Assembly (NCBI GenBank): GCA_021732605.1
Contig: JAKFUS010000021.1
Span: 10,186 to 74,185, forward strand
Reading direction: 5' to 3'
Origin: Betaproteobacteria bacterium
Lineage (GTDB): Bacteria; Pseudomonadota; Gammaproteobacteria; Burkholderiales; SG8-41
Length of the DNA stretch: 64,000 bases
Shown here piece after piece: positions 1,121-58,772 of the stretch. The translations under genes were made by a program, and so were the position numbers. The notes beneath the pieces are model-generated. The model was not told the DNA's origin and ran no database searches. It saw only the letters and a program-made list of their open reading frames with translations. Each line of letters starts with the position of its first letter. Positions within the stretch are counted from its first letter, which is position 1.

Positions 1121-1156
1121 GATATTATAAAATATCAATAAAAACAAATACTTATA
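1121..1156 (-). repeat. AT-rich recurrent element, copy A (reverse orientation)
   Basis: The reverse complement reads tataagtatttgtttttattgatattttataatatc. It shares the 21-nt core ATAAGTATTTGTTTTTATTRA with copies at 6684, 9910 and 48481. It lies in the 60-nt Gfo-Bug intergenic spacer. Confidence 0.8.
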
Positions 1157-1176
1157 TACACCAAAGGAGAAAACCA

Positions 1177-2154
1177 ATGAAACATTGCAAGCGCACTGCC
1201 CTGGCTGCCGCACTGTCCCTGCTCGCCTGCGGCACTGCATTCAGCGCAGACAACTATCCCAACCGCCCGGTGCGCATGGTCGTGCCGTTTGCGCCGGGTG
1301 GCGCTTCGGACTTCGTCGGCCGCATCATCCAGCCGGCGATGGCGGATCTGCTGAAACAGCAGGTGGTTGTCGATAACCGCCCGGGCGCCGCCGGCAACAT
1401 CGGCGTGGAAGTCGGTGCCCGCGCCAGCCCTGACGGTTACACCTTCATTCTTGGCAATGTCGGCACGATGGCGATCAATCCGGTGTACTACACCAAGTTC
1501 CCGTACAAACCGCTGAGAGACCTGATCCCGATTACGCAACTGGTCGACGTGCCGGGCAGCCTGGTGGTGCATCCCGCATTGCCGGCAAAATCAGTGAAAG
1601 AACTGGTTGCCTATATGAAGGCCAACCCGAACAAGCTCAACTTTGGCTCGCCGACGGCGAGCAGCGCCAATTCGCTGGAAGCGCGCATGTTCCTCAATGT
1701 CACCGGCACCAGTGCTACTGAAGTGCCCTACAAGGGCGGCGCCGGTCCGGCCACTGTCGGCCTGCTGGCCAATGAAGTGCAGTTCATGTTTGCCACTTTT
1801 TCTTCAACGCTGACCTTCGCCAAGCAGAACCGCCTGCGCATGCTGGCCATCGTCGCACCGGAACGCAGCTCCGCCATGCCCGACGTGCCGACCATGCGTG
1901 AACAGGGTTTCAACATGGTGGTTGGCTCCTGGCAGGGGCTGTTTGTGCCCAAAGGTACGCCGACACCGGTGGTCAACACCCTCTTCAAGGTTGGCCAGGA
2001 CGCCATGAAGGATGCCACTGTCAACAAGCGTCTCGGCGACAGTGGTGTCGCCGTCGTCACCAGCAAGAGTCCTGCGGATTTCACCGCCTTTGTCAAAGGC
2101 GAGACCGAGCGTTTCGGCAAGGTGATCCGCGACTCCAACATCCAGACCGAATAA
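1177..2154 (+). CDS. Bug/TctC family tripartite tricarboxylate transporter substrate-binding protein
   Basis: 325 aa with a signal peptide, then the family hallmark YPNRPVRMVVPFAPGGASD. RBS aaggag lies upstream. Confidence 0.85.
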   Translation: MKHCKRTALAAALSLLACGTAFSADNYPNRPVRMVVPFAPGGASDFVGRIIQPAMADLLKQQVVVDNRPGAAGNIGVEVGARASPDGYTFILGNVGTMAINPVYYTKFPYKPLRDLIPITQLVDVPGSLVVHPALPAKSVKELVAYMKANPNKLNFGSPTASSANSLEARMFLNVTGTSATEVPYKGGAGPATVGLLANEVQFMFATFSSTLTFAKQNRLRMLAIVAPERSSAMPDVPTMREQGFNMVVGSWQGLFVPKGTPTPVVNTLFKVGQDAMKDATVNKRLGDSGVAVVTSKSPADFTAFVKGETERFGKVIRDSNIQTE

Positions 2155-2188
2155 CTGTTGTCCGTTTAACCCGACCAAGGATGCAAGG

Positions 2189-3298
2189 ATGAAACTCGGA
2201 ACGTTCATGATGCCGCTCCACCCGCCCGGGAAGAGCTATCCGCAATCACTGCGCGAGGACCGCGAGGCGATCATCCTCGCCGACAAGCTGGGCTTTGATG
2301 AAGCCTATGTCGGAGAGCATGTCACGGATGCTGCGGAAACGGTCACGCACTGCATGACCTTTCTCGCCAGCCTGATCTCGGAAACCAAGCGCATCAAGCT
2401 TGGCACCGGCACCATCAACATTCCGTGTTCCCATCCCGCCGCCATCGCGGCGCAGGTCGCGATGCTGGACAACCTGCTTGAAGGCCGTTTCATCATGGGC
2501 ATCAGCCCCGGCGGCCTGGCCTCCGACGCTGAAGTGTTCGGCAACCTCGAACGCGACCGCAATGCGATGTTTGTCGAAGGCATCAACATGGTGCTGAAGA
2601 TCTGGGAATCCGAGCCGCCGTACAACCTCGAAGGCAAGTTCTGGAAAGTCACGACCGAAAAAACCATGATTCCGGAAATCGGCCAGGGCCGCATCCTCAG
2701 GCCCTTCCAGAAACCGCATCCATTGATCGTGGGTACCGTGGTCGCCCCCTTCTCCAAGGGCGTGATCGCAATGGCCGAGCGCGGCTGGCAGCCGATCTCT
2801 GCCAACTTCCTGATGCCGGAGTGGGTCAAGACGCACTGGCCCAACTACGCCGAAGGCAAGAAAAACATCGGTGAGGTGGCTAACACTGCCGACTGGCGCA
2901 TCGCCAAAAGCATTTTCGTCGCCGATGACGAAGCCACCGCGCAGCGCTATGGCAAATCGGCGGAAGGCCCCTACCATTTCTATTTCAAGCAGCTGGTGCG
3001 CAAGCTGGTTGGTTTCAGCGGCCGCGGCAACCTGTTCAAGGTCGACCAGAGCATGCCCGATTCGGCGATCACGCCGGAATACGTCACCGACAAGCTGGTG
3101 CTCGCCGGCACCGTCAACAGCGTGGTCGACCAGATCCTCGCCTTCCGCGAACAGGTCGGCGATTTCGGCATGCTGGTGTATGCCTGCCACGACTGGATTG
3201 ACCCCAAGCTGGCCAAACGTTCCATGGAACTGATGGCTGAAAAAGTGATGCCGGCGGTCAACGCCGCCATCGCCAAAAAAGGCAGCAAGGCCGCCTGA
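2189..3298 (+). CDS. LLM-class (luciferase-like) flavin-dependent oxidoreductase
   Basis: 369 aa. The N-terminus MKLGTFMMPLH, LGFDEAYVGEHV and an overall TIM-barrel LLM pattern support the call. Confidence 0.75.
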   Translation: MKLGTFMMPLHPPGKSYPQSLREDREAIILADKLGFDEAYVGEHVTDAAETVTHCMTFLASLISETKRIKLGTGTINIPCSHPAAIAAQVAMLDNLLEGRFIMGISPGGLASDAEVFGNLERDRNAMFVEGINMVLKIWESEPPYNLEGKFWKVTTEKTMIPEIGQGRILRPFQKPHPLIVGTVVAPFSKGVIAMAERGWQPISANFLMPEWVKTHWPNYAEGKKNIGEVANTADWRIAKSIFVADDEATAQRYGKSAEGPYHFYFKQLVRKLVGFSGRGNLFKVDQSMPDSAITPEYVTDKLVLAGTVNSVVDQILAFREQVGDFGMLVYACHDWIDPKLAKRSMELMAEKVMPAVNAAIAKKGSKAA

Positions 3299-3320
3299 AA
3301 CATTCGCAAGGAGCAACACG

Positions 3321-4319
3321 TTGTTCAACGTCGCAGTCGTCGGCATGGGCTGGTGGGGCAAGATCATTGTCCCGCTGCTCAAGACCAGCAAAAAAATCAA
3401 TGTCAGCACCGTCGTCGAGATCAATGCCGCGGGCATTGCCGATTTTGCAAAACAGCATGGCGTCAAAGTCGTCACCGACCTTCAGGATGTTCTGAAGGAT
3501 CCGGCCATCCAGGGTGTCGTGCTGTGCACCCCGCACACCCAGCACACCGAGCAGATCATTGCCGTTGCGAACGCCGGCAAACACGTGTTCTGCGAAAAAC
3601 CGCTGTCGATGACCCGTGCCGATGTGCTGCGCGCAATCAAAGCCGTCAATGACAACAAGGTGGCGCTGGCCGTGGGCCATGAACGGCGCTTCGAGCCACC
3701 TGTGCTGGAAGCCATGCGCATCATCCAGTCCGGGGAGCTTGGCACACCGCTGCAGGTTGAGGCCAATTTCAGCCAGGACAAATTCCTCGCACTGGCCGCT
3801 GACAACTGGCGGCTCTCCGGCAAAGAAGCGCCAGCCGGTCCGATGACGGCCACCGGCATTCATCTGCTTGATTTGTCCGTCGGCGTATTTGGCGAAGCCG
3901 AGCGCGTATTCGCCAGCGTCAAACAACTGGGCAGCCAGCTCGTGAACGGCGATACATTGGCGATTCTCGTGACGTTCAAGAACGGCGGCCATGCACTGAT
4001 CAGCGCAATACTCGCCACACCGTTCGAAGGGCGCTTCGCGGTGTACTGCAACAAGGGCTGGATCGAAGTGCGCGACAAAACCCATCCCGAAGCGCCGGAA
4101 GGCTGGGTGCTGACCAAGACACTGCGCGGCGGCAAGAAAGAAGTCCGTGAGTTCCCGCCGGCACCCAATGTGCTTGCCAACCTCGAAGCCTTTGCCGATG
4201 CCGCCGAAGGTCGTGCGCCCTACCCGGTGCCACAATCGCAGATGATTGCCAACATTTCCGCGCTGGAAGCGATCTTCAAATCAGCCTCCACCGGCACCAT
4301 CGTCAACGTCGAATCCTGA
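3321..4319 (+). CDS. Gfo/Idh/MocA family oxidoreductase (paralog of 6714..7682)
   Basis: 332 aa with VGMGWWGK Rossmann and CEKPL motifs. TTG start; the stop overlaps the next gene's start (ATGA-type junction at 4319). Confidence 0.8.
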   Translation: MFNVAVVGMGWWGKIIVPLLKTSKKINVSTVVEINAAGIADFAKQHGVKVVTDLQDVLKDPAIQGVVLCTPHTQHTEQIIAVANAGKHVFCEKPLSMTRADVLRAIKAVNDNKVALAVGHERRFEPPVLEAMRIIQSGELGTPLQVEANFSQDKFLALAADNWRLSGKEAPAGPMTATGIHLLDLSVGVFGEAERVFASVKQLGSQLVNGDTLAILVTFKNGGHALISAILATPFEGRFAVYCNKGWIEVRDKTHPEAPEGWVLTKTLRGGKKEVREFPPAPNVLANLEAFADAAEGRAPYPVPQSQMIANISALEAIFKSASTGTIVNVES

Positions 4320-5497
4320 TGGCCAAGACTGCGCCGACTCATTCCGATCTCAGCGAACGCGCACAGGCGCTGGTGCCGGTATTGCGCGAGCGTGCACCGC
4401 GCACGGAAGAGCTGCGACGCATCCCTGACGACACCATCAGCGACCTGCATGCCAGCGGCCTGTTCCGCATGCTGCAACCGAAACGTGTCGGCGGCAGCGA
4501 ATTGTCGTACGAGGCCATCGTTGAACTGTCGGCCATCATCGGCCGTGGTTGTGGTTCGACAGCCTGGGTACTGGCCAACCTCGCCAATCACCACTGGATG
4601 CTGGCGCTGTGGCCACGCGCTGCGCAGGATGAAATCTGGGGCCCGTCACCGGATGCACTGGTCGGCTCGGCGCTGATGTTCCCCGCCGGGCACGCCGAGC
4701 GCGACGGCAAAGGATTCCGTTTGTCCGGCCGCTGGAAATTTTCCAGCGGCATTGATGCCTGCGACTGGTGCATGCTCGGTGGCATTGCCAGCAGCGCCGA
4801 AGGCGAACTGCCGCAATATTATGTGTTCGTCGTGCCCAGGGCCGATTACAAAGTCATCGATACCTGGCATGTCGCGGGACTGCGCGGTACCGGCAGCAAG
4901 GATGTCGAGGTCAGCGAAATTTTCGTGCCTGCGCATCGCGCGCTGACTGTCGAGCAGATGAAAGGTGGTGTTGCGCCCGGCGGTGAAACCGCCCCGCTGT
5001 ATCGCCTGCCGGTGTTCGACATGTTTCCTTATGTGGTGGCCGGCGCTGCGCTGGGCATCGCCCAGGGCGCGATCGAAGAGTTCAGTGCCGACATCCGCCA
5101 CCGCATCACCGCCTACGCCACGACGCTGCTTGCCGACTATGCAACCACCCAGGCGCGACTGGGTCATGCGGCATCGGCGATCTCCGCTGCAGAACGCATC
5201 CTGATCGGCAATTGCAGGGAAGCCATGGCACTGGCAGCACACAATGCCGTGCCGGCGCGCGACCTGAAAATCCGCATGCGTCGCGACGGCGCCTACGCCG
5301 CGCATCTGTGCACCGAAGGTGTCGATCTGCTGTTCGGCGCCGGTGGTGGAGAGTTTCTTTACAACCAGCAGGTCATACAGCGCTCTTTCCGCGATATCCA
5401 CGCCGCAAACAGCCATTACGCGCTGGCCTGGGATATCGCCACCACGATGGCGGGTAAATCCCTGCTCGGCATTGCGGCCGACTTGCCTACCCTGTAA
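4319..5497 (+). CDS. Acyl-CoA-dehydrogenase-fold flavin-dependent monooxygenase, oxygenase component (HsaA / HpaH-C2-like)
   Basis: 392 aa. The N-terminal pattern (RAPRTEELRRIPDDTISDLHASGLFRMLQPKRVGG ... GSTAWV) resembles HsaA/C2-type two-component hydroxylases. A flavin reductase gene follows directly. Confidence 0.7.
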   Translation: MAKTAPTHSDLSERAQALVPVLRERAPRTEELRRIPDDTISDLHASGLFRMLQPKRVGGSELSYEAIVELSAIIGRGCGSTAWVLANLANHHWMLALWPRAAQDEIWGPSPDALVGSALMFPAGHAERDGKGFRLSGRWKFSSGIDACDWCMLGGIASSAEGELPQYYVFVVPRADYKVIDTWHVAGLRGTGSKDVEVSEIFVPAHRALTVEQMKGGVAPGGETAPLYRLPVFDMFPYVVAGAALGIAQGAIEEFSADIRHRITAYATTLLADYATTQARLGHAASAISAAERILIGNCREAMALAAHNAVPARDLKIRMRRDGAYAAHLCTEGVDLLFGAGGGEFLYNQQVIQRSFRDIHAANSHYALAWDIATTMAGKSLLGIAADLPTL

Positions 5498-5502
5498 CGC
5501 TG

Positions 5503-6024
5503 ATGGCTGATACACCGACCGCACCGGCCAGTCCGGAACTTGATCCGCGCGACTTTCGCAATGCGCTCGGCCTGTTCGCCACCGGCGTCACCATCGTCAC
5601 CACCAAAACCAGTGACGGCGAACCCATAGGCCTGACCTGCAATTCCTTCAGTTCGGTCTCGCTGTCGCCGCCACTGGTGTTGTGGAGCCTGTCGCTGCGC
5701 TCACCCAATCTGCCGAATTTTCTGCAGGCCACGCATTTCGCGATCAACGTGCTGGCGCATGACCAGATTCCGCTGTCGCAGCGTTTTGCCAAACCGGTGC
5801 CGCGCAAGTTCGAAGGCATTGCCCATGGTTTCGGCGCGCACGGCATGCCGCTGCTCGATGGTGCTGCGGCACAGTTCGAGTGCCGCACTGAAGCCCGGCA
5901 CTACAGCGGCGACCATGTGATATTCATCGGCCAGGTATTGCAATACAGCTATGCCGACCGTGCACCACTGGGTTATTTCCGCGGTTCTTATGCCGCGATA
6001 CAGCCCGTTTTGCAAAACTCCTGA
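5503..6024 (+). CDS. Flavin reductase family protein (reductase partner of the two-component monooxygenase)
   Basis: 173 aa. FRNALGLFATGVTIVTT and LTCNSFSSVSLSPPLVLWS are hallmarks of the flavin reductase-like domain. Confidence 0.8.
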   Translation: MADTPTAPASPELDPRDFRNALGLFATGVTIVTTKTSDGEPIGLTCNSFSSVSLSPPLVLWSLSLRSPNLPNFLQATHFAINVLAHDQIPLSQRFAKPVPRKFEGIAHGFGAHGMPLLDGAAAQFECRTEARHYSGDHVIFIGQVLQYSYADRAPLGYFRGSYAAIQPVLQNS

Positions 6025-6045
6025 TTCACCCTGAAAGGAATCGCC

Positions 6046-6681
6046 ATGACTCAGCGCATCCGCGGCATCACCGATGAGGAAGCCGTTGGGCCCGCCAGGG
6101 ATCTGTTCGACGCATCGAACAAAATGCTCGGCCGCACCGCCAACCTGATGCGCATCCTGTCGCACAGCCCGTATGTCGCGCGCTGGATCCTGCCCTTCAT
6201 CGCCGCGGTGCGCCAGCCCAATGCCGGTGCAGTATCGGATGTGCGCCTGCGCAACCTCGCGGTACTGAAGACTTCAACCATCAACGACTGTCATTACTGA
6301 ACGGAACACAATTACGTGCTTGGTCAAGCACTGGGTCTGAAAGACGAAGAGTTCGACGCCCTGAAAGGCGACTATCAGGCAAGTCCGCTGTTCAATGCCA
6401 AAGAGAAGGCGACCATCGCGTGGTCTGAGGCGATGACACTGAACACCGCGAAACGCGACAACAAGGCCTGGGATGCGATGCGCCGCGAATTCAATGACGC
6501 TGAAATCGTCGAAATCTCCCTCGCCTGTTCAATGTTCAACATGATCAACCGACTCAATGATTCCTTCCGCACCGAACTGGAGAGCGTGGAATACAACCGC
6601 CGCCAGCACGGCGCGGTCGGCGTCACCCGCGCAACGCTGGAAGAGTATGCCTGCCGGATTTGTGCAGCAAAGAGTGAATGA
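6046..6681 (+). CDS. AhpD/carboxymuconolactone-decarboxylase (CMD) family protein with an in-frame TGA at 6298-6300 (candidate selenocysteine codon; alternatively a nonsense pseudogene)
   Basis: ORFs 6046..6300 and 6316..6681 share one frame and are separated only by the TGA. Read-through gives 211 aa. The TGA replaces the second Cys of the CxxC motif (INDC-H-Y-TGA-T-E-H). Confidence 0.55.
6312..6334 (+). promoter_or_regulatory. SECIS-like RNA hairpin downstream of the in-frame UGA
   Basis: Perfect 6-bp stem gtgctt/aagcac (6316-6321 / 6326-6331) with apical loop ggtc (6322-6325), which starts 21 nt after the UGA. A possible lower stem forms with C6315 bulged. Confidence 0.45.
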
Positions 6682-6683
6682 CC

Positions 6684-6720
6684 TTATAAATATTTGTTTT
6701 TATTGATAATTTTATGATCA
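6684..6720 (+). repeat. AT-rich recurrent element, copy B (forward)
   Basis: ttataaatatttgtttttattgataattttatgatca. Its 3' end contains the ATG (6714) of the next gene, which has no recognisable Shine-Dalgarno sequence. Confidence 0.8.
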
Positions 6721-7682
6721 ATGCAGCTATCGTCGGACTCGGCTGGTGGGGCAAAAATATCGCCGATGCCGTGCAGGGCAAAAGCAACAAGCTGCACTTT
6801 GTGCATGGCGTGACCCAGGAACTCGACGCCACGCGCGAATACGCCAAGGCCAAAGGTTTCAGGCTGTCGGCGACGCTGGCAGAAGCTCTGGCGGACCCGG
6901 CAGTGCAGGCCGTGGTGCTGGCCACGCCCCACTCGCTGCATGCCGACCAGGTGGTGCAGGTGGCGCGCGCCGGCAAAGCCGTGTTCTGCGAAAAACCGCT
7001 GTCACTGGTCCGCACCGATGCCGAACGTGCGGTGGCCGCGTGCAAGGCTGCAAAAGTGCCGCTGGGTGTAGGCCAGAACAAACGCTTCTGGCCATCGATG
7101 GCGGAACTGCGCCGCGTCATTGCCAGCGGTGCGCTGGGCCGCGTCATGCACGTCGAAGGCCATTACAGCAACGAACACTCCAGTAAATTTTTTGCACCGT
7201 GGCGCGATCTGCCGGCCGAAACGCCAGGCGCCGGCATGACCGGCACCGGCATCCACATCCTTGATGCCTTTGCCAACATCGCCGGCCCGGCTGAGCAGCT
7301 CACCGCGCAGTTCATTGCCCATCGCAGCGGTGCCGATCCGCGCGACACGGTTTCCGTATTGTTCAGGTTCGCCAACGGCATCAGCGGTTTCCTTGGTGCC
7401 GTGCGCGCCTCCCCGCTGTATTTCCGCGTGCATGTGTTCGGCGATGAAGGCTCGGTCGAAGCGCTGGACGAAACGCGGACCATCATCCGCCTCAAGGGCG
7501 GCAGGACCGAAGTGAAGGATTTCGCGAAAATCGACTCAGTGCTGGCAGAGATGGATGCGTTTGCCGATGCGGTGGCGGGTGTGGCGCCCTACCCGATCAC
7601 CACCGATGAAATGGTAAACACCATTGCCTCATTCGAAGCCGTGATCCAATCGATTGCCGGGGGAAATACCGTCAGGCTGTAG
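6714..7682 (+). CDS. Gfo/Idh/MocA family oxidoreductase
   Basis: 322 aa with VGLGWWGK and CEKPLS motifs; a clear paralog of 3321..4319. Confidence 0.8.
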   Translation: MINAAIVGLGWWGKNIADAVQGKSNKLHFVHGVTQELDATREYAKAKGFRLSATLAEALADPAVQAVVLATPHSLHADQVVQVARAGKAVFCEKPLSLVRTDAERAVAACKAAKVPLGVGQNKRFWPSMAELRRVIASGALGRVMHVEGHYSNEHSSKFFAPWRDLPAETPGAGMTGTGIHILDAFANIAGPAEQLTAQFIAHRSGADPRDTVSVLFRFANGISGFLGAVRASPLYFRVHVFGDEGSVEALDETRTIIRLKGGRTEVKDFAKIDSVLAEMDAFADAVAGVAPYPITTDEMVNTIASFEAVIQSIAGGNTVRL

Positions 7683-7768
7683 TTCGCGAGTCGTCATAAC
7701 GTGGACGAACGCTTATCGGGCACCACAAAATCCCGTATTGTGCGCGCACGATCCTCGGGGAGATTCAA

Positions 7769-8737: not shown

Positions 8738-8757
8738 GCGGCTTCAGGCAAGCGTCT

Positions 8758-9735: not shown

Positions 9736-9909
9736 CGATTTCTCCTCCAGCAGTGATGAACGGACGATCATTGGCGGCTTTTTTAAATACGATGATTGTT
9801 ATTTGAAGGCCAGTCTATCTTTTGTCGAGGATACGATTGAATGCGCCATCAATCCCTGTGCGGGACACCCTTATTGATTCCGCCCATTGGTCAATCTGGA
9901 GGCCATCTC

Positions 9910-9944
9910 AATAAGTATTTGTTTTTATTAACAATTTTATGATT
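9910..9944 (+). repeat. AT-rich recurrent element, copy C (forward)
   Basis: aataagtatttgtttttattaacaattttatgatt, located about 175 nt upstream of the minus-strand Bug gene start. Confidence 0.8.
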
Positions 9945-9964
9945 TTCCTGCGGGTAGCAAGCAT

Positions 9965-10081: not shown

Positions 10082-12298
<2,217 letters not shown>

Positions 12299-12397: not shown

Positions 12398-12403
12398 GAT
12401 CAA

Positions 12404-47723: not shown

Positions 47724-47726
47724 GAT

Positions 47727-48518
47727 TTATTTCATCGCCTCAACCGGCAGCACGAAACCATATTGCTCAAAAATTTTCCGTGCTGCGGGCTGCTGCAACC
47801 AGGCATAAAACGCGCGCGCCGTTTCGCCCGCCCCTTTGACCAGCACCATGCGCTGGCGGAGTGGCTGGTGCAGGTCTTCGGGCAACAAAACATACGTTCC
47901 CAATTTCGAAACAGTCGGGGACAAGGCCAGCGAATACGCAAAAATGCCGCCCTGCGCCGAACCACTGGTCGCAAACTGCGCCGCCTGTGACACGTTTTCG
48001 CCGAGCACCAGTTTTCTCTGCAATAGCTCCCACAGCCCCTGCTTGCGCAAAGCCTGTTCGGCCGCGCGACCGTAGGGTGCATGCTCAGGATTGGCAATGG
48101 CAAAACGGCTGATGCGGTTGGCAGCGAGGGCGGCGTTGAGGCCGTCCATCCGGCCATCGACCTGGAGCGGCGATGATTTGGGTGCAAACAATACAATACG
48201 GCCGGTCGCATACAGCACGCCACGATCTTCGGTTTTCCCGTCCTGATGCAGACGAAAAACAAAATCCTCATCGGCCGACATAAACAGCTGGAATGGAGCG
48301 CCCTGCCCGATCTGGCGGAAATAATTACCCGAGGAACCAAACGACAGCCGCAGTTCATTTTGGGTATCGCCACGAAAGCGTGCGGCGATGGCTTCCAGCG
48401 CGAACTGCAGATCGGATGCGGCAGCAATGGCGGGATTGGAGTCCTGGGCATGAACACTCGCGCTTTGCCCTGAAAATAACAAAAATATTAATAAAAACAA
48501 ATACTTATGAAACTTCAT
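47727..48518 (-). CDS. modA: Molybdate ABC transporter substrate-binding protein
   Basis: 263 aa. The mature part, AAASDLQFALEAIAARF...SFGSSG, is ModA-like. The signal-peptide codons coincide with AT-rich element copy D. Confidence 0.85.
   Translation of the reverse strand: MKFHKYLFLLIFLLFSGQSASVHAQDSNPAIAAASDLQFALEAIAARFRGDTQNELRLSFGSSGNYFRQIGQGAPFQLFMSADEDFVFRLHQDGKTEDRGVLYATGRIVLFAPKSSPLQVDGRMDGLNAALAANRISRFAIANPEHAPYGRAAEQALRKQGLWELLQRKLVLGENVSQAAQFATSGSAQGGIFAYSLALSPTVSKLGTYVLLPEDLHQPLRQRMVLVKGAGETARAFYAWLQQPAARKIFEQYGFVLPVEAMK
48481..48508 (-). repeat. AT-rich recurrent element, copy D (inside the modA 5' coding region)
   Basis: The reverse complement reads ataagtatttgtttttattaatattttt and is translated as KYLFLLIFL within the ModA signal peptide. 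Confidence 0.8.
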
Positions 48519-49342
48519 CGCGCAATCCCCAGCGGCAGGCAGACATTGCGCGTGCCGCCCTGCGTCAGTGCCACTGCTGTAACCGCGATCTCCACACCAT
48601 AGAGCTGGCGCAGATTGACGGCAGTCATCACTTCGGTGGGCGTGCCACAGGCCATCAACCGTCCCTCATGCAGCATCGCCGCCCGATCCGCACACAGAAA
48701 AGCGTGATCCGGATCGTGCGTGGACAGCAGCACGCCGATACCCTCTCCGGCCAGCGTACGAATGCGCTCCAGTACGCGCACCTGGTTGCCGAAATCAAGA
48801 TTTGCCGTCGGCTCATCCATGATCACCACGCGTGCTTCCTGCGCCAGCGCGCGCGCGATCAGCGCGAGCTGGCATTCGCCGCCGGAGACCTGTGTGTAAA
48901 TCGTATCCGCCAGGTGTGCGATGCCCATGCGTTCGATGGCCGCCATCGCCGCGGCATGGTCCCGCGCGGAGGGTGCTGCGAACAGGCCGAGGTGCGCGGT
49001 GCGTCCCATCAGCACCAGTTCGCGCACCGTGTACGGAAAAAATGCGCCATGCGCCTGCGGCACATAACTGATCTGCCGTGCAATCGCATCACGCGGCAGC
49101 GTGCGCGCATCACGGCCATCGATCAATACCGTGCCATCCTGTGGCGGCAACAGTCCGAGCAGGGTCTTGAACAATGTCGTCTTGCCGCTGCCATTGGGGC
49201 CGAGCAGGCACAACACCTCTCCAGGCGCCAGTTCCAGCGTAACGCCGCTGCCGACACGGCGGTCGCGGTAACCGAATCCGAGATTTGTTGCCGCCAGGCT
49301 CATTGCCAGTCCCTCATTGCCAGCTCCTTCTTGCGGTCGCAA
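48515..49342 (-). CDS. Type-II (BtuD/FepC/MolC-like) ABC importer ATP-binding protein
   Basis: 275 aa with Walker A GPNGSGKTT, signature VSGGECQ and Walker B VIMDEP. Its stop overlaps the modA start (ATGA). Confidence 0.85.
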   Translation of the reverse strand: MRPQEGAGNEGLAMSLAATNLGFGYRDRRVGSGVTLELAPGEVLCLLGPNGSGKTTLFKTLLGLLPPQDGTVLIDGRDARTLPRDAIARQISYVPQAHGAFFPYTVRELVLMGRTAHLGLFAAPSARDHAAAMAAIERMGIAHLADTIYTQVSGGECQLALIARALAQEARVVIMDEPTANLDFGNQVRVLERIRTLAGEGIGVLLSTHDPDHAFLCADRAAMLHEGRLMACGTPTEVMTAVNLRQLYGVEIAVTAVALTQGGTRNVCLPLGIAR

Positions 49343-50348: not shown

Positions 50349-50394
50349 GTCAGCGATTCCTTAAACCAGAACCGCCGCAGCATACCGCACCCGA

Positions 50395-51920: not shown

Positions 51921-51923
51921 GGC

Positions 51924-52628
51924 TCAGCCGTAGCGCCGCAGCGCCATCTCCCGGATCACTGCGGCGAGTGCATTGAGCACGATCACCAGCGTGATCAGCA
52001 CAATACCCAGGCCCAGCGCCAGCGGCAGATCGCCCTTGCTGGTTTCCAGCGCAATGGTGGTGGTCATCACCCGCGTCACGCCGGCGATGTTGCCGCCAAC
52101 GATCATCACTGCGCCGACTTCCGCCGCAGCGCGGCCGAAACCGGCCAGCACGATGGTCAGCAGTGAAAACCGCGTATCCCAGATCAGCGTCATCGCCGCA
52201 TTGAGTCGCTGTGCACCCAGCGAACGCAGCTGTTCATCGTATTCGCGCCAGGCATCTTCGATGATCTGGCGCGACAGCGCGGCGATGATCGGCGTGATCA
52301 GCACAGTCTGCGCGATGACCATGGCGGTCGGCGTAAACAGGATGCCGAGGCTGCCCAAGGGCCCTGCGCGCGACAGCAGCAGGTACACCACCAATCCCAC
52401 CACCACCGGCGGCAGGCCCATCAAGGCGTTGAGCAACACGATCAGGGTCTGGCGGCCGCGGAAACGTTCGACGGCAATCATCGCGCCGATCGGCAGACCA
52501 ATCAGGGTCGCGATCACCACGGCAGTCAGGCTGACCTGCAGGCTGAGTCCGACCACCTGCGCCAGTTCGTCATCAAAGCCGGCGATCAAGCGCCACGCCG
52601 CACCAAATGCTTCAACCAAACTGTTCAT
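51924..52628 (-). CDS. tupB: ABC transporter permease (TupB-like)
   Basis: 234 aa with 5-6 TM helices and an EAA-type loop (EQLRSLGAQRLNAAMTLI). Confidence 0.7.
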   Translation of the reverse strand: MNSLVEAFGAAWRLIAGFDDELAQVVGLSLQVSLTAVVIATLIGLPIGAMIAVERFRGRQTLIVLLNALMGLPPVVVGLVVYLLLSRAGPLGSLGILFTPTAMVIAQTVLITPIIAALSRQIIEDAWREYDEQLRSLGAQRLNAAMTLIWDTRFSLLTIVLAGFGRAAAEVGAVMIVGGNIAGVTRVMTTTIALETSKGDLPLALGLGIVLITLVIVLNALAAVIREMALRRYG

Positions 52629-52651
52629 GTAATTATTAGCAATACTTGAAA

Positions 52652-52678
52652 GATATTGATTTTATTGATATAAAAATC
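52652..52678 (+). repeat. Variant of the AT-rich recurrent element (copy F) in the tupB / modE-like divergent promoter region
   Basis: gatattgattttattgatataaaaatc resembles copy E (gtatttgattttattaataatt) and contains a direct ATTGAT..ATTGAT repeat. Confidence 0.5.
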
Positions 52679-52707
52679 AACCACAATATGCAATATAGAA
52701 CATAACC

Positions 52708-53766: not shown

Positions 53767-53832
53767 GTCTGCAAGCTGCCTGATAAAATCCAAACTTCCA
53801 TTACATCCATTACCACCATCGAGGACCCGTCG

Positions 53833-55122
53833 ATGAATACTCCGAATCCGACCCTGAATGCAACATCGTTACGCGACATTTCCTGCGCCGACGATTACGA
53901 TCCCAATTCGATGCCAGTCCCCAAGGCGCGGGAAGTAATTGCGCGCTTCCTGTCACCGATCACCACGATTGAACGCGTATCCGTACGCGCAGCTTTGGGG
54001 CGTGTGCTGGCGGAAGACGTCATCTCTCCGGTCGATGTGCCCTCCCATGACAATTCAGCAATGGACGGTTATGCCGTACGGTTTGCCGACCTGAAGGCCG
54101 ACGGCCAGGTCACACTGAAAATGACCGGCAGCTCCTTCGCCGGCGTACCGTTCAAAGGCGCCGTCGCTGCAGGCGAGGCCGTGCGCATCATGACCGGCGG
54201 CGTCGTGCCCTCGGGTGCAGACACCATCGTCATGCAGGAACATGCCGAAGCCAAAGACGGGCAGATCAGCATCGGCAGCGGTCACAAGAAAAACCAGCAC
54301 CTGCGCCGCGCCGGTGAAGACCTGCAGCGCGGCCAGCCGGCATTGCGTCGCGGCCAGCCGCTGCGCCCCGCCGAAACCGGACTGATCGCTTCACTCGGCA
54401 TTGCCGAGGTTTCTGTGCATCGCAAATTACGCGTGGCATTTTTCTCCACCGGCGATGAACTGGTATCCATCGGCTCACCACTGGGCGAGGGCCAGATTTA
54501 CGACAGCAATCGTTACACGTTGCACGCCATGCTGACGCGTCTGGGTTGCGAAGTCATCGACATGGGTGTGGTGCGCGATGACCCAAAACTGCTCGAGTCC
54601 GCATTCCGCGAAGCCGCTGCAGTGGCCGATGTCGTCATCACCAGCGGCGGCGTATCCGTCGGAGAAGCCGATTTTGTCAAAGACCTGCTCAATCAAATGG
54701 GCGAAGTCGTGTTCTGGAAAATCGCGATGAAACCCGGTCGTCCTCTCGCCTACGGCAAAATCGGCAAGGCGCATTTCTTCGGCCTGCCCGGCAATCCGGT
54801 ATCGGTAATGGTGACCTTCTACCAGTTCGTGCGTGATGCGCTGCTGAAACTCTCGGGCCGCGATCCGATTGAAGCACTGCCCACCTTCAAGGTGCCCTGC
54901 ACCTCGGTGCTGAAAAAAGCACCCGGCCGCACCGAGTTCCAGCGCGGCATCCTGTCGCGCGACAGCGCCGGCAACCTCAGCGTGCGCGTCACCGGTGAGC
55001 AAGGTTCAGGCATCCTGCGTTCGATGTCGGAAGCCAACTGCTTCATCATCCTCGGCATCGACCAGGGCAACGTCACCTCGGGCACACTGGTTGAAGTGCA
55101 GGTGATGGAAGGCGTGATTTGA
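53833..55122 (+). CDS. moeA: Molybdopterin molybdotransferase
   Basis: 429 aa with MoeA motifs (SAMDGYAV, RRAGED, IITSGGVSVGEADF, MKPGRP). Confidence 0.92.
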   Translation: MNTPNPTLNATSLRDISCADDYDPNSMPVPKAREVIARFLSPITTIERVSVRAALGRVLAEDVISPVDVPSHDNSAMDGYAVRFADLKADGQVTLKMTGSSFAGVPFKGAVAAGEAVRIMTGGVVPSGADTIVMQEHAEAKDGQISIGSGHKKNQHLRRAGEDLQRGQPALRRGQPLRPAETGLIASLGIAEVSVHRKLRVAFFSTGDELVSIGSPLGEGQIYDSNRYTLHAMLTRLGCEVIDMGVVRDDPKLLESAFREAAAVADVVITSGGVSVGEADFVKDLLNQMGEVVFWKIAMKPGRPLAYGKIGKAHFFGLPGNPVSVMVTFYQFVRDALLKLSGRDPIEALPTFKVPCTSVLKKAPGRTEFQRGILSRDSAGNLSVRVTGEQGSGILRSMSEANCFIILGIDQGNVTSGTLVEVQVMEGVI

Positions 55123-55126
55123 ACCA

Positions 55127-55197
55127 GTGATGGGTGATGGGGGAAGACCGGGACTGCCACGACCCACTCATTACTCATTACCCATTACTCATCACCT
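55127..55197 (+). repeat. Heptamer-repeat inverted structure / large RNA hairpin just after the moeA stop
   Basis: Left arm (GTGATGG)x2+GGG at 55127-55143. Right arm: five heptamers CCCACTC ATTACTC ATTACCC ATTACTC ATCACCT at 55163-55197. Positions 55127-55141 pair with 55181-55195 over 15 bp (13 Watson-Crick plus 2 G-U). Confidence 0.55.
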
Positions 55198-55231
55198 CTA
55201 ATTAATGAGCAGCACTAAATAAAACCACCGC

Positions 55232-56233
55232 ATGAACAACACCAACAAACCGGTCCGCTGGGCCATCGTCGGCCTCGGCTGGGTCGCCACGGATTTTGTC
55301 GCGCCGGGCATCATCAAAAGCCCCGGCTCGGAACTCGTCGCCTGCCTCGGCAGCACGCCGGAAAAAAGCCGCGCCTTTGCTGAAAAATTCAAGGTTGCGC
55401 GCCCCCATCCTGACCTCGAAAGCCTGGCGCGGGACCCTGATGTCGATGCCGTTTACATCGCTCTGCCCAATGCCATGCACCATGGCGCGGTGCTGACACT
55501 GGCGCGCGCCGGCAAGGACATCCTCTGCGAAAAACCGTTTGCGATGAAAACCCAGCACGCCCGGGAAATGGTTCAGGCCTGCCGCGATGCCGGGGTGGTG
55601 TTGCGCGTCGCGCACCAGATCCGTCTTGATGCCGCGGTCGTCCGTGTGCGTGAAATCGTGCGCTCCGGGCGGCTCGGCCGGCTGGCGGAAATTTCGCTGG
55701 AACGCGCCTCAGGCCTCAGTTCGCGCGCGTCCTGGCGCAACGATTTCGAACAAAGCGGTGTGATGTACGACGTCGGCGTGCACCTGCTCGACCTGATCCA
55801 GTACGTCAGCGGCCAGCGTTTTGTCGAAGTCGCGGCGTTCACCCATCCCGATCGTCGTGACAAAAAATCTGACGACACCATGACCGTGCTCGGCCGCCTC
55901 GACGGCGACTGCCACGCGCTGGCCAAAGCCACCCGCGAAGTCGCCAGTGCCGAAAACAACCTGCTGATCGAAGGCGACAAGGCCACGCTGGTCACCTCGG
56001 CGCTGCGTTTCGCCAAGGAGCATGTGATCACCATCCGTGACGCCCAAGGCAGCACCGAGGAACGTTTCCCGGTCAGCCCGGCCTATGACCTGCAGGTGCA
56101 GGCCTTCGAGACCGATGTGCGCGGCGGACGCAGCCTTCTGCCGGATGGCGAAGACAGCCTCTATACCGTGGCCGTCACCAATGCAGTCCTGCAATCGATC
56201 GATGAGCGGCGCATCGTGACTGTCACCGCCTGA
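55232..56233 (+). CDS. Gfo/Idh/MocA family oxidoreductase
   Basis: 333 aa with WAIVGLGWVA Rossmann and CEKPFA motifs. Confidence 0.8.
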   Translation: MNNTNKPVRWAIVGLGWVATDFVAPGIIKSPGSELVACLGSTPEKSRAFAEKFKVARPHPDLESLARDPDVDAVYIALPNAMHHGAVLTLARAGKDILCEKPFAMKTQHAREMVQACRDAGVVLRVAHQIRLDAAVVRVREIVRSGRLGRLAEISLERASGLSSRASWRNDFEQSGVMYDVGVHLLDLIQYVSGQRFVEVAAFTHPDRRDKKSDDTMTVLGRLDGDCHALAKATREVASAENNLLIEGDKATLVTSALRFAKEHVITIRDAQGSTEERFPVSPAYDLQVQAFETDVRGGRSLLPDGEDSLYTVAVTNAVLQSIDERRIVTVTA

Positions 56234-56272
56234 CTTGCCCGGCGGCATCAGCCGCAGCACAATGCCTGACGT

Positions 56273-56294
56273 GCAATACCAATAACAAACATCC
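56273..56294 (-). repeat. Possible degenerate (GC-ameliorated) copy of the AT-rich element in a Gfo-Bug spacer
   Basis: gcaataccaataacaaacatcc compared with copy A aaatatcaataaaaacaaatactt: same orientation and same position between a Gfo gene and a Bug gene. Confidence 0.3.
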
Positions 56295-56314
56295 CGCACA
56301 CCGGAGGAGTTCGA

Positions 56315-57301
56315 ATGGAACGCAAAAAAATCGGCTTGAATGCCATCGTCGTTGCAATCATGGCCTGCCTGACCGCCCTTCCGGCCTGGGGCCAGAGCGG
56401 CCCGTATCCGAACAAAATCATCCGCATCATCAATCCGCTGGCGGCAGGCGGTAACGTGGACATCGTGGCGCGCGGCATCGCCGAGCAATTAAGCAAATCG
56501 CTGGGGCAGCAGGTGCTGGTGGAAAACCGTCCCGGCGCCAGCGCACTGATCGGTACACGCTACGTCAAGGGCCAGCCCGCCGACGGTTATACCCTGCTTG
56601 CCATCGCCAACACCTTCGCCCGGGTGCCGGCCATCGTCAGCGACCCCGGTTACGATCCGCTGAAGGACTTCACCGGGGTTTCGCAGACCTGCGATATTCC
56701 GATGGTATTGGTGATCAACCCCGCACTACCCGTGAAGAGCATCAAGGAATTCATCGCACTGGCGAAAAAACGCCCCGGTGAACTGACTTACGGATCCGCA
56801 GGCAACGGCGGCACGGGGCACGTCGCAGCCGAAATGTTCAGCCAGCAGGCCGGCATCAAAATGATGCACATCCCGTACAAGGGCAATGCGCCGGCAACCA
56901 CCGACCTGGTCGGCGGCCAGATCATGCTGATGTTCGACCAGGTCAGCACTTCAGTCGGTTACATCCAGGCCGGCCGATTGCGCGGACTGGCCGTGACCAG
57001 CAAAAAACGCTCGCCGCTGTTCCCGGACATGCCCACCATCGACGAAGCCGGTGTTCAGGGCTTTGAGGACAGCACATTCAACGGGCTCGTTGCGCCCGCA
57101 GGCACGCCGCGCGATGTGCTCGAAAAAATCCGCGGCGAAGTGGTCAAAGCCGTGGCCGTTCCCGCACTGAGGGAGCGCTTCGACAAGCTGGGAATACCGC
57201 TGATCGCAAGCAATACACTGGATGAATACAATACCTTCCTGCGCCGGCATGTCGAAGACTTCACGAAACTGGCAAAAACCGCCGGCATCAAAGCCAACTA
57301 A
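56315..57301 (+). CDS. Bug/TctC family substrate-binding protein
   Basis: 328 aa with a signal peptide followed by YPNKIIRIINPLAAGGNVD. Confidence 0.85.
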   Translation: MERKKIGLNAIVVAIMACLTALPAWGQSGPYPNKIIRIINPLAAGGNVDIVARGIAEQLSKSLGQQVLVENRPGASALIGTRYVKGQPADGYTLLAIANTFARVPAIVSDPGYDPLKDFTGVSQTCDIPMVLVINPALPVKSIKEFIALAKKRPGELTYGSAGNGGTGHVAAEMFSQQAGIKMMHIPYKGNAPATTDLVGGQIMLMFDQVSTSVGYIQAGRLRGLAVTSKKRSPLFPDMPTIDEAGVQGFEDSTFNGLVAPAGTPRDVLEKIRGEVVKAVAVPALRERFDKLGIPLIASNTLDEYNTFLRRHVEDFTKLAKTAGIKAN

Positions 57302-57320
57302 ACCAACGCAGGAAACCACC

Positions 57321-57779
57321 ATGCCTGTCAGCCATCTTGAACATTTCCTGATCCAGACCGCCGACCTTAAAGCCACACGCGACTGGTACGTCGATATGCT
57401 CGGTTTCCGTGAAGGCCCGCATCCCGATTTCAAATTCCCGGTAGTGTGGCTTTATCTGGGTGACAACGACGTCGTGCACCTGACAGAGGGGGGCAAAGAC
57501 GTGAGTGCCAACCGTAAGGCCTACCTCGGCCAGCACTCAGAGGCCACTCAAGGCAGCGGCGTCATCGACCACATGGCCTTTCGCTGCACCGGCCTGCGCG
57601 GCATGATGGAACATTTGCGTGATAAAAAAGTCGAATTCCGTCAGCGCATGGTCAGCGACCAGGGACTGTTTCAACTCTTTCTGTTCGACCCCAACGGCGT
57701 CAAGGTCGAACTGAATTTTTCCAATACCGAAGCACAGGGCATTGCCCCGGAGCTGATGGCCTCCGCCTTGCCGGCATGA
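57321..57779 (+). CDS. VOC (glyoxalase/bleomycin-resistance/extradiol dioxygenase) family protein
   Basis: ATG at 57321 (MPVSHLEHFLIQTADL..). Metal-ligand-type His/Glu positions are present (H..H..E). Confidence 0.75.
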   Translation: MPVSHLEHFLIQTADLKATRDWYVDMLGFREGPHPDFKFPVVWLYLGDNDVVHLTEGGKDVSANRKAYLGQHSEATQGSGVIDHMAFRCTGLRGMMEHLRDKKVEFRQRMVSDQGLFQLFLFDPNGVKVELNFSNTEAQGIAPELMASALPA

Positions 57780-58720
57780 GCGCGCCGCAATGGCAAGCCC
57801 GCCAGTTTCATTACCTGTCCGCTGACAGCCACGTCCATCCTTTCCTGGTCGATCTGTGGGAGGAAGTCCGGCAGGCCACGGACGGTCGTTTCAGCGCAAC
57901 CGTCACCGCCAGCAATGCCGGTTTGCCCGGCTCGCATCTGGCCATTGTCGATCTGCTGATCACCGGTGAGATCGAGTTCTATGTGCTGATGGGCGGCATA
58001 CTCGGTCCGCTGGTGCCGGCGATGGAAATCCAGGGACTGCCCTTTGCTTTCAGCGACCACGCGCAGGTGCACGCGACACTTGACGGCCCGCTGGGTCACT
58101 ATCTGCGTCGCGAACTTGCGGCCAAAGGCATCCATGCCCTGCCCTACGGCTTGCTGGAAAACGGTTTCCGCCACATCTCCACCACAGACCGGCCGATCAC
58201 CAAAGTCGAAGATCTCGAAGGACTGCGCATCCGCATCCCCGAGGGCAAGATGTTTGCCGATGCGTTTTCCAGCCTCGGCGCGGTACCGGTCGAAGTCAAT
58301 GTATTGAAACTGTACCCGGCGCTGCAGAACCATGAAATCGACGCCCAGGAGAATCCGCTGTCGATCACCGAAGCGCTGCGTTTGCATGAAGTCACCAAGC
58401 ACATCGCACTGACCAGTCACATGTGGTCGGGATTCAACCTGATCGCGAGCCAGCGTTTCTGGAACACGCTGCCCGCCGATGTGCAGCAGATCATCGAGCG
58501 TGTCGCGCGCAAGCATGTGGCACGACAGCGCGCGCATACCGATGCGCTGAACCGCGCGCTGGAATCGAAAATCACCGGCTGGGGCATGACCGCTACTGCT
58601 GTAGACCGCAGCGCATTCAGGGAGCGCCTGCAAGCCGCCGGCTTCTACCGGCGCTGGCGCGAAAGCACCGGCGCCAAGGCCTGGGGTTTGCTCGAGGACA
58701 GCATCGGCAAAATATCGTGA
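57776..58720 (+). CDS. DctP-family (TRAP-type) solute-binding protein homolog without a recognisable signal peptide
   Basis: 314 aa with a DctP-like pattern throughout. Its ATG overlaps the VOC gene stop (ATGA). No DctQ/DctM genes are in the window. Confidence 0.65.
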   Translation: MSAPQWQARQFHYLSADSHVHPFLVDLWEEVRQATDGRFSATVTASNAGLPGSHLAIVDLLITGEIEFYVLMGGILGPLVPAMEIQGLPFAFSDHAQVHATLDGPLGHYLRRELAAKGIHALPYGLLENGFRHISTTDRPITKVEDLEGLRIRIPEGKMFADAFSSLGAVPVEVNVLKLYPALQNHEIDAQENPLSITEALRLHEVTKHIALTSHMWSGFNLIASQRFWNTLPADVQQIIERVARKHVARQRAHTDALNRALESKITGWGMTATAVDRSAFRERLQAAGFYRRWRESTGAKAWGLLEDSIGKIS

Positions 58721-58740
58721 GTGATCACGATGCCAAAGTT

Positions 58741-58772
58741 ATATAAGTATTTGATTTTATTAATAATTAAAT
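58741..58772 (+). repeat. AT-rich recurrent element, copy E (variant)
   Basis: atataagtatttgattttattaataattaaat: one T-to-A change in the core. It lies directly upstream of a terminator hairpin. Confidence 0.7.

Follow-up and report, generated by a model that had tools for sequence, protein, structure and literature searches.

An AT-rich, IHF-site-like element evenly dispersed at gene ends in a freshwater betaproteobacterial genome

Results

The window, a 64-kb stretch of one contig, carries five copies of a 21-nt AT-rich core with at most one mismatch: 1135-1155 (-), 6686-6706 (+), 9911-9931 (+), 48488-48508 (-) and 58743-58763 (+). Zero matches to this core are expected in shuffled sequence, so the recurrence is beyond chance, as a preliminary description made from the sequence had stated. 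We set the bounds of the full 43-nt element in the window with a profile built from genome-wide copies, and the five full elements score 20-22.5 bits. Two further copies had been listed, and neither stands as such. At 52652-52678 (+), in a divergent promoter region, TTGATTTTATTGATA is present and the TAAGTAT half is absent; this half-match scores 7.8 bits (E 0.32 within the window) and may have arisen by chance or represent a weak or decayed site. At 56273-56294 the profile search found no match to the element.

Copy A (1123-1165, minus strand, 20.2 bits) takes up most of the 60-nt intergenic gap that separates a GFO/IDH/MocA oxidoreductase gene (7-1116) from a TctC/Bug receptor gene (1177-2154; Pfam assignments), and an orthologue was found in all six congeners examined. 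Copy B (6676-6718, plus strand, 21.6 bits) fills the 32-nt gap 5' of another GFO/IDH/MocA gene (6714-7682), whose ATG lies inside the 3' end of the element and, as correctly noted before, has no Shine-Dalgarno sequence; copy and ATG are kept in six congeners, in four of which the upstream gene is not the same. Copy C (9901-9943, plus strand, 22.5 bits) lies between two minus-strand genes, katG (stop codon at 10082) and a TctC gene (start at 9771), on the border of a region with species-variable gene content. Copy D (48476-48518, minus strand, 21.9 bits) sits within an ABC-transporter operon, immediately 3' of the stop of the ATPase gene (48515-49342) and 5' of the binding-protein gene, with orthologues in four congeners. 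Copy E (58733-58775, plus strand, 21.1 bits) lies in a convergent gap, 13 nt past the stop of the DctP/TRAP binding-protein gene at 57776-58720; it has a GC-rich terminator hairpin on its 3' side and is found in three congeners. All window copies are non-palindromic, lack flanking inverted repeats and lie at gene boundaries, in agreement with the preliminary description. The stretch 12300-44500 is free of the element and corresponds to the portion of the window that lacks synteny with congeners, a low-GC (45-55%) segment included; the gap from 9943 to 48476 (about 38.5 kb) is the largest inter-element gap of the whole assembly (maximum 38,575).

Searching the whole 3.48-Mb genome extends the family on a scale that had been underestimated: 237 copies lie within 3 mismatches of a 19-mer and the profile search finds about 350, against none in a reversed-genome control. 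Copies are thus not confined to the window, and the element matches no known IS or MITE end. It is AT-rich, about 38-40 nt long, and its flanks are unrelated among copies. Both orientations are equally common (relative to genes, 102 same versus 88 opposite), so the earlier suggestion that reverse/forward pairs bracket gene modules finds no support. Copies lie close to gene 3' ends, 4-11 nt from the stop codon of the upstream gene, with the next start some 40 nt away, and occupy 54 of 423 convergent gaps compared with 35 of 424 divergent ones; about 37 lie inside genes. The balance of orientations, the proximity to stop codons and the preference for convergent gaps mark a DNA-level, orientation-free signal, and they speak against the promoter or UP-element role that had been considered; the fixed orientation and distance upstream of genes expected of a sigma-70 promoter or UP element are not seen.

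The host belongs to a freshwater, uncultured lineage, and its genome carries about one copy per 9-10 kb (0.1 per kb). Spacing is more even than chance: the coefficient of variation of the gaps is 0.70 versus 1.00 +/- 0.06 under random placement, and for intergenic copies 0.75 versus 0.97 +/- 0.07 with randomly drawn intergenic gaps. Profile scores are continuously distributed, without the shape of a recent burst.

A canonical IHF site has the consensus WATCAAnnnnTTR with an upstream A-tract, as in the H' type of site in lambda attP, where the A-tract spacing is 8 nt. In the position matrix of the 237 copies the reverse-strand consensus is 5'-TAAAAA-TATCAATAA-AAWCAA-ATAC-TTA-T. The near-invariant positions are T1 A2 A3, which form the TTR element on the other strand (TAA, read TTA there, in 98-99% of the 237 copies), and T9 G10 T12 T13, which belong to WATCAA; the spacer between the two is exactly 4 bases, and information dips there. 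Reverse-strand positions 13-8 read A-A-[T/A]-C-A-A, with the C and AA at least 88-100% conserved; the variable base gives ATCAA in 45% of copies, and position 11 is T in 55%, reading AACAA where the canonical site has ATCAA. TTGAT at positions 8-12 is repeated at 17-21, which places reverse-strand CAA steps 9 bp apart, and this second TTGAT, 9 bp downstream, supplies a second ApA step. Positions 23-27 hold a run of T (57-89% at each position), which on the reverse strand is an A5 A-tract; its distance from the W of WATCAA is 8-9 nt, and in half of the copies it is 9 nt, compared with the 8 nt of lambda H'. All four canonical IHF elements are therefore in register on the reverse strand within about 35-38 bp. 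In the published definition of an IHF site, two ApA steps 9 bp apart are the sites of the proline-intercalation kinks (PMC1874591).

Conservation also covers the spacer (GTAT), a left AT-rich extension (-9 to -1) and TTTTATT, and the matrix contains a 9-bp direct repeat, TTGWTTTTA/TTGATATTT; outside -9 and +30 the flanks are uninformative. The element carries about 49 bits, whereas 14.6 bits would suffice to specify 284 sites. Mutual information is restricted to neighbouring positions, which implies that there are no subfamilies. We found no terminal inverted repeats, target duplications or hairpin of the element's own, and stable hairpins (-15 kcal/mol or below) lie within 60 nt of 42% of copies versus 27% of control gaps. 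The spacer varies among species while TAA and TTG stay fixed: it is GTAT in this genome, GCCA/GTCA in another species (G021) and CTAT/CTTA in the second motif-bearing family.

The window sites in syntenic DNA (A, B, D and E) are kept in every congener with regional synteny (3-6 species), where their coding flanks are 75-85% identical, and they are conserved better than the adjoining non-coding DNA. Judged from these alignments, the motif is under clear purifying selection within the genus. The coding copies overlie existing codons by means of AT-ending synonymous codons and conservative replacements, and the peptides that the motif encodes in PolA, LigA and PurD give gap-free alignments with their E. 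coli homologues. In polA, motif-poor genera use CGC CAT CTC GGC GTG AAG ACC ATC ACC TAC where motif-rich genera use AGA CAT TTA TCA ATA AAA ACA ATA AGT TAT. As read from the aligned genes, the coding copies in polA, ligA and purD arose by substitution, not insertion. A recombination or insertion scar, proposed earlier, finds no support as the origin in view of the conserved orthologous sites and these coding copies, yet copies B and C do adjoin gene-content breakpoints between species. Genes with coding copies include polA, ligA, mfd, an ogt-like and a rarA-like gene and type III restriction-modification (7 of 37, with an uncalibrated baseline).

The genome encodes orthologues of IHF alpha and beta (E 2.5e-40 and 2.2e-33 versus 1IHF chains A and B), with an identical RIEIRGFGSF strand and a conserved RNPK arm in the DNA-binding arms. 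These proteins are 87-97% identical across motif-rich and motif-poor lineages. The motif-rich genera comprise three with hundreds of copies, two with 30-80 and one genus of a second family; in the 18 motif-rich genomes tested (6 genera, 2 families) the HU/IHF family comprises at most IHF alpha and beta, with one exception that has an extra divergent HU-like gene; HU is found in most motif-poor genera. No H-NS gene (PF00816) was found in this genome (G000) or in 13 others of the two motif-bearing families; PF00816 is present in two outgroup families. The element is thus no H-NS nucleation site here, and of the earlier proposal of a global or nucleoid regulator the direction is supported, for an IHF-type protein, while its H-NS version falls. 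One genus (g18) has no HU, no H-NS and no motif, so loss of both proteins is not sufficient, and the association of the motif with HU loss may amount to no more than two independent events in evolution. Elsewhere in the order, genomes of other families have just 1-9 copies of the same 18-mer pattern, at clusters of DnaA boxes (in three families the hemE-priA gap, and at one locus 9 DnaA-box-like words) or beside tRNA 3' ends, which is where IHF sites are expected.

Discussion

We infer that the copies are probably IHF sites with an architectural role, maintained by selection. Each copy would be a complete, high-affinity predicted site for the heterodimeric DNA-bending protein IHF, the two ApA steps 9 bp apart marking the two proline-intercalation kinks. 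Like canonical IHF sites, the element combines four consensus elements in register within about 35 bp and is asymmetric and non-palindromic, and the orthologous heterodimer is encoded here. Unlike those degenerate, individual regulatory, recombination or replication sites, it exists in about 350 copies that share some 30 conserved positions, are evenly spaced, lie at the 3' ends of genes and in some genes are written over codons. The sites were built in place by point substitution, without transposition, and selection would hold about 350 positions, most of them just past stop codons, where promoters and ribosome sites stay undisturbed, and some inside genes where needed. Bound IHF would then impose sharp, fixed U-turns that organise the chromosome, the sites serving, where transcription units end, as putative supercoil-domain anchors or barriers; we propose that IHF is the main bending protein because HU and H-NS have both been lost.

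A bolder and distinctly tentative version is that the chromosomes of these HU- and H-NS-less lineages are arranged on a hard-wired scaffold of hundreds of evenly spaced, near-perfect IHF sites, one per about 9 kb (the size of a supercoil domain), at transcription-unit ends. In that case the strength of selection would suffice to recode conserved proteins, DNA polymerase I among them, and the species "dialects" would indicate concerted evolution of the whole array.

Several observations sit uneasily with IHF sites of either kind. More than half of the copies (55%) carry AACAA rather than ATCAA, and about 49 bits is far above the need of a binding site. The spacer bases are not read directly by IHF, yet within the genome they are strongly conserved, and between species they differ despite near-identical IHF; these spacer dialects suggest an extra constraint or a homogenising drive. 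Copy number ranges about 10-fold within the genus, which would be odd for an essential scaffold.

The dialects and the excess information would be explained if another sequence-specific DNA-binding protein or complex, possibly acting with IHF, read the non-IHF positions. GTAT, the -9 to -1 extension and TTTTATT are conserved beyond the requirements of IHF, and the 9-bp direct repeat could suit a tandem binder. We regard this as doubtful: no candidate protein was found, the nucleoid-protein set of motif-rich lineages is reduced rather than expanded, the conserved positions fit the IHF elements best, and the same word occurs in families without amplification. The main rival is a DNA-uptake (or recombination) signal, in which competence prefers motif-bearing DNA, repeated uptake and recombination lead to hundreds of copies, and the IHF-like layout reflects a need for easily kinked DNA. 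USS of Pasteurellaceae and DUS of Neisseriaceae are such signals, and every population-genetic hallmark of them is present: hundreds of copies genome-wide, equally on both strands, in coding and non-coding DNA, with coding overlay by substitution, even spacing, dialects, more information than needed and absence from foreign DNA, here the non-syntenic 12-44 kb island. The spacing of AT-tracts by about one helical turn is likewise shared, the genes with coding copies listed above have been counted in its favour, ComEC and the type IV pilus protein PilP are encoded, and the densest carriers (g19, g173, g8) have a typical periplasmic ComEA. Nevertheless, the element is about 10-fold less dense than USS/DUS, much longer and entirely AT-rich, and the uptake machinery of this genome lacks comEA: there is no HHH_3 match and no tblastn match, the best hit being the HhH region of DnaE, and hldD and cysM are 3 nt apart where the syntenic order in g19 is hldD-comEA-cysM. 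This clean loss weakens the uptake explanation; comEA is also missing from two 99%-complete congeners (G011 and G024), and purifying selection on the motif persists in the genus despite the loss. Motif-free sister genera equally have ComEC and pili, and the four-element IHF match and the DnaA-box occurrences in motif-poor families would have to be coincidence. On balance we consider an uptake signal unlikely.

Much less probable is a signal read in RNA or by transcription, such as a promoter or UP element, a terminator, or an RNase or translation-enhancer site. It would account for positions at gene junctions, the AU-rich leader and start codon that copy B provides in place of a Shine-Dalgarno sequence, and the somewhat commoner flanking hairpins. 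With both orientations in equal use, however, it would be random whether the RNA is U-rich or A-rich; the element itself forms no hairpin, is nearer to stop codons than to starts, and occurs in convergent gaps and inside genes. Least credible of all is a miniature mobile or copied element, whether MITE- or REP-like or an IHF site multiplied by some copying mechanism. Many near-identical intergenic copies and the breakpoints at B and C would fit it, whereas the element shows no terminal inverted repeats, target duplication, hairpin or conserved flank, its orthologous positions are kept across species, its coding copies are substitutions, and it has a continuous score distribution and no subfamily structure. 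We found no insertion polymorphism either, and a MITE, REP or other small mobile repeat is largely refuted. Correia/NEMIS and other small repeats with a functional IHF site are also dispersed and intergenic, but these are MITEs, bounded by terminal inverted repeats and by target duplications; the element has neither and was not born by insertion.

The RIB/RIP sites of E. coli, in which IHF binds the L motif of BIME-1, number about 100 and offer a close precedent: they too are a dispersed, conserved, extragenic family of IHF sites that lie where transcription units end on the 3' side, and they have been proposed to help organise the nucleoid or supercoiling, as put forward here. They are always flanked by REP palindromes and never coding. 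The element has neither palindromes nor conserved flanks, so it is not a BIME-1, and has several-fold more copies per Mb. BIMEs have been discussed as possible domain barriers (PMC6907758).

The motif sequence was absent from the literature searched. A classical bending-protein site seems here to have undergone 50- to 100-fold amplification by evolving in place, to the point that polA was recoded, in clades whose repertoire of nucleoid proteins is unusually poor (IHF only). The prevailing view is that bacterial nucleoid proteins work mainly by abundant, weakly specific binding; to our knowledge, HU is otherwise almost universal, and arrays of dedicated sites across a genome are known solely for special functions (uptake sequences, Chi, KOPS, matS). 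If IHF does bind, these genomes would be a natural system for how fixed bends organise supercoil domains and transcription units, and would show how HU is replaced; if the scaffold exists, it would be the first bacterial nucleoid architecture encoded in the genome as a dedicated array of sequence-specific sites. Were the motif instead an uptake or recombination signal, the number of independent lineages with such signals would rise to three, this one being the first among free-living freshwater bacteria. As a marker, the motif also separates native from acquired DNA sharply in these genomes.

Copies in the window and across the genome

Five sites in the window match the 21-nt core of the AT-rich element with at most one mismatch, at 1135(-), 6686(+), 9911(+), 48488(-) and 58743(+), against a chance expectation of 0 (100 shuffles). 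These copies, designated A (1123-1165, reverse strand), B (6676-6718, forward), C (9901-9943, forward), D (48476-48518, reverse) and E (58733-58775, forward), score 20-22.5 bits with a profile built from the genome-wide copies. The preliminary description had listed all five, which are solid, along with two further sites that did not hold: the one at 52652 reaches only 7.8 bits and represents the TTGATTTTATTGATA half alone, and a profile scan returned no match at 56273. The gene contexts it gave were borne out by Pfam, with further detail: copy A separates a GFO/IDH/MocA gene from a TctC gene, copy B precedes a second GFO/IDH/MocA gene, copy C sits between katG and a TctC gene, copy D is internal to an ABC-transporter operon and copy E follows a DctP gene.

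The source genome, a 3.48-Mb draft of 59.8% GC, contains 237 copies that deviate from the 19-mer at no more than 3 positions. A profile search of this genome retrieved 353 matches at E<=10 (141 at E<=0.01), and the same search of the reversed genome retrieved zero. With the core start as reference, information in the aligned copies is raised between about -9 and +30, a span of some 38-40 nt, and the consensus reads rRAAwwwwT-ATAAGTATTTG[A/T]TTTTATTGATAWTTTTww. The flanks are mutually unrelated and of normal GC content, and we found no inverted repeat or duplication, nor any hairpin of the element's own. Mutual information is confined to adjacent positions, indicating that there are no subfamilies.

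Placement and spacing

To place the copies, we used a purpose-built, crude codon-usage gene caller (3207 genes, 88% coding); about 30 "inside-gene" copies no more than 30 nt from a predicted start are probable start-codon miscalls and were left out of the coding copies. Roughly 80% of the copies fall between genes. With respect to the two genes flanking them, 102 have the same orientation and 88 the opposite one, while 54 occupy convergent and 35 divergent gaps. In either orientation, the upstream stop codon is a median 4-11 nt away and the following start about 40 nt; the element sits near both stop codons where the gap is convergent, and far from both starts where it is divergent. These positions point to a DNA-level feature parked at the least harmful places. 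A promoter, terminator or RNA motif was rejected on these statistics, since the pattern of orientation and position excludes a promoter or an oriented RNA signal; hairpins are only mildly enriched in the flanks. We also rejected a strand-oriented signal of the Chi/KOPS type, because GC skew is constant along a 64-kb stretch in which copies of both orientations occur.

The copies are spaced more evenly than chance. The coefficient of variation of inter-copy gaps is 0.70, versus 1.00 +/- 0.06 under random placement, and gaps below 1 kb make up 1.8% of the total instead of the expected 11.8%. For the intergenic copies the coefficient is 0.75, compared to 0.97 +/- 0.07 for random intergenic gaps (minimum 0.78 in 1000 draws). 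The largest element-free gap of the whole assembly, 38.5 kb, falls in the window at 9943-48476 and coincides with a stretch that is non-syntenic to congeners and partly of low GC. The region at about 12300-44500, which has no element copy, lacks synteny with six congeners that hold different 10-20 kb inserts there, and includes a segment at about 24-30 kb with a GC content of 45-55%; it was probably acquired horizontally.

Conservation and origin in place

Six congeners are syntenic with window positions 8-7682, and most also with 44.5-64 kb, with 75-85% identity in the coding flanks. Wherever synteny holds, the orthologous positions of copies A, B, D and E carry the element, which is conserved better than the adjacent non-coding DNA. 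In copy B, the ATG of the GFO/IDH/MocA gene (window 6714) is embedded in the element without a Shine-Dalgarno sequence, an arrangement kept in six species. The gene directly upstream (about 6000-6683) is present in two congeners, G011 and G045, and absent from four others, which have an entirely different gene there and still keep the element with its embedded ATG. Window 6046-6681 holds two same-frame ORFs whose sole separator is a TGA at 6298-6300; their read-through product has no Pfam match at E<=1e-5. Many other copies in the genome likewise end in TTTTATG followed by GC-rich sequence, which suggests that a subset serves Shine-Dalgarno-independent initiation from an AU-rich leader.

Approximately 37 copies lie in frame, deep within high-scoring genes. 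Read forward, the element encodes QVIDFIDK (CAA GTA ATT GAT TTT ATT GAT AAA), with a T1-to-C change that avoids a TAA stop; read in reverse, it encodes (S/N)IK(S/T/N)N..(Y/L). In PolA, LigA and PurD, the residues that the motif encodes can be aligned to the E. coli or other solved homologues with no gap. We compared the polA codons across 13 genera of the family: motif-poor genera use CGC CAT CTC GGC GTG AAG ACC ATC ACC TAC (RHLGVKTITY; AT3 0.05-0.26), whereas motif-rich genera use AGA CAT TTA TCA ATA AAA ACA ATA AGT TAT (RHLSIKTISY; AT3 0.53-0.79), and none of the 13 genera has an intermediate form. The motif thus came to overlie pre-existing codons through synonymous and conservative substitutions, which requires a directional force on the DNA sequence itself. 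A mobile element was rejected, given the lack of terminal inverted repeats, target-site duplications or hairpins, the conserved orthologous sites and the gap-free alignment of coding copies to E. coli homologues.

Resemblance to IHF sites

On the reverse strand, the consensus presents in register an A5 tract, a CAA step and, 9 bp on, the CAA of AAWCAA, corresponding to the WATCAA element of the IHF consensus (defined as in PMC1874591, which was preferred because the consulted text of Table 2 of PMC6907758 assigns the motifs of IHF and H-NS to the wrong proteins). Four spacer bases, visible as a dip in the information profile, separate AAWCAA from a TTA that corresponds to the TTR element. The preferred spacers are GTAT in the source genome, GCCA or GTCA in the sampled genome G021, and CTAT or CTTA in a second family. 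The genes for IHF alpha and beta, adjoining pheT and rpsA, respectively, are both orthodox; the DNA-binding arms of their products are virtually the same as in the E. coli proteins, and IHF identity between motif-rich and motif-poor lineages is 87-97%. With moderate confidence, we predict that the copies are IHF architectural sites.

Our survey sampled 61 families of the order Burkholderiales (401 genomes). The strict word is abundant only in the source genus, in one further genus of its family and in a single genus outside that family, and occurs in 0-3 copies elsewhere in this sample. With the spacer left free, there are 56-250 copies per genome in all sampled members of the source genus (g1), 440-590 in g19, 348 in g173, 31-78 in g174, 64 in g170 and 283-329 in g8, which belongs to the second family, versus 0-9 in eight other genera of the source family. 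Among the few copies in other families, three (loci L163, L167 and L168, in three families) are found in the hemE-priA gap with DnaA-box-like words around them, two share one locus with nine such words, and two adjoin tRNA 3' ends. Replication-control regions and integrase attachment sites are the classical places of IHF sites, so this distribution supports the view that the element is the best IHF site of the Burkholderiales, amplified in some lineages. The clusters of DnaA-box-like 9-mers beside an IHF-type site at L163, L167, L168 and L172 are candidate replication origins or DnaA-titration/reactivation loci.

Our literature search returned no paper containing either 17-mer variant on either strand, and nothing relevant on uptake sequences in Burkholderiales. 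The element differs in a tested defining feature from single IHF sites, from the RIB/RIP sites of E. coli, which are REP-flanked, from IHF sites inside Correia-type MITEs and from the uptake signal sequences (USS/DUS) of Pasteurellaceae and Neisseriaceae.

Nucleoid proteins and alternative explanations

The motif-rich genomes we tested have at most two genes of the HU/IHF family, IHF alpha and beta, apart from one genome with an additional, divergent HU-like gene. They lack HU proper, as tblastn confirmed for the source genome; it is present in both outgroups and in most motif-poor genera of the family, except g18 and one g20 genome. At the genus level, HU loss is associated with motif richness (Fisher's p 0.001-0.007), although as few as two independent events may underlie this. 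Both motif-bearing families lack H-NS (PF00816), which the outgroups have; H-NS itself, one of the candidate readers of the element named in the preliminary description, was therefore rejected. Neither HU nor an H-NS-family gene occurs in the source genome or in G011, G024, G264, G378, G031 and G085, a repertoire that is unusually poor for Proteobacteria. IHF appears to be the sole classical bending protein of the motif-rich lineages, which makes selection for dedicated IHF sites plausible; however, g18 shares this repertoire but lacks the motif, so the repertoire is not proof of such selection.

Several features still speak against a simple IHF reading. The spacer and outer positions are strongly conserved within a genome, species "dialects" coexist with near-identical IHF, and copy number varies 10-fold within the source genus. 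Together with the motif-free, HU-less g18, these would allow for a homogenising process or for a further factor that reads the site. We consider an additional DNA binder unlikely. The search for an extra IHF/HU paralogue as motif-specific binder found none, HU being missing instead. The main rival is an uptake signal, and the population-level features match those of USS/DUS exactly: the motif overlies coding sequence, is evenly spaced and equally frequent on both strands, has dialects, is missing from the foreign island and carries excess information (about 49 bits where 14.6 are needed). The coding copies moreover include polA, ligA, mfd, an ogt-like gene, a rarA-like gene and type III restriction-modification genes, although this DNA-maintenance class (5-7 of 37) was assigned mostly by eye and its enrichment figure lacks a calibrated baseline. 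ComEC and type IV pilus genes (PilP) are uninformative, being equally present in motif-free sister genera; ComEA is informative. In genera g19, g173 and g8, the encoded ComEA has the typical periplasmic form, comprising a signal peptide, an HhH domain and a tail rich in Lys and Ala, but comEA is absent from the source genome and two 99%-complete congeners, the best match in the former being a weak one to the HhH region of DnaE. In g19, comEA (periplasmic product, long Lys/Ala/Asp-rich tail) lies between hldD and cysM, whereas in the source genome (C47:9665-11545, outside the window) cysM starts 3 nt after hldD: the gene has been cleanly lost. Since purifying selection acts on the motif in this comEA-less genus, uptake bias is unlikely to maintain it there, and we regard an uptake signal as distinctly improbable.

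Occurrences elsewhere

In an outgroup genome, a motif-like site (L166, G182:C1:615400-618400) is separated by about 330 nt from an H-NS-family gene, in an apparently transposase-bearing region. The exact 18-mer also occurs (e.g. at L026, L020 and L084) in metagenome-assembled genomes labelled Gallionellales and Nitrosomonadales and in several from lakes that wrongly bear the label "Bordetella parapertussis". Taxonomically, the amplification may extend beyond the two sampled families.
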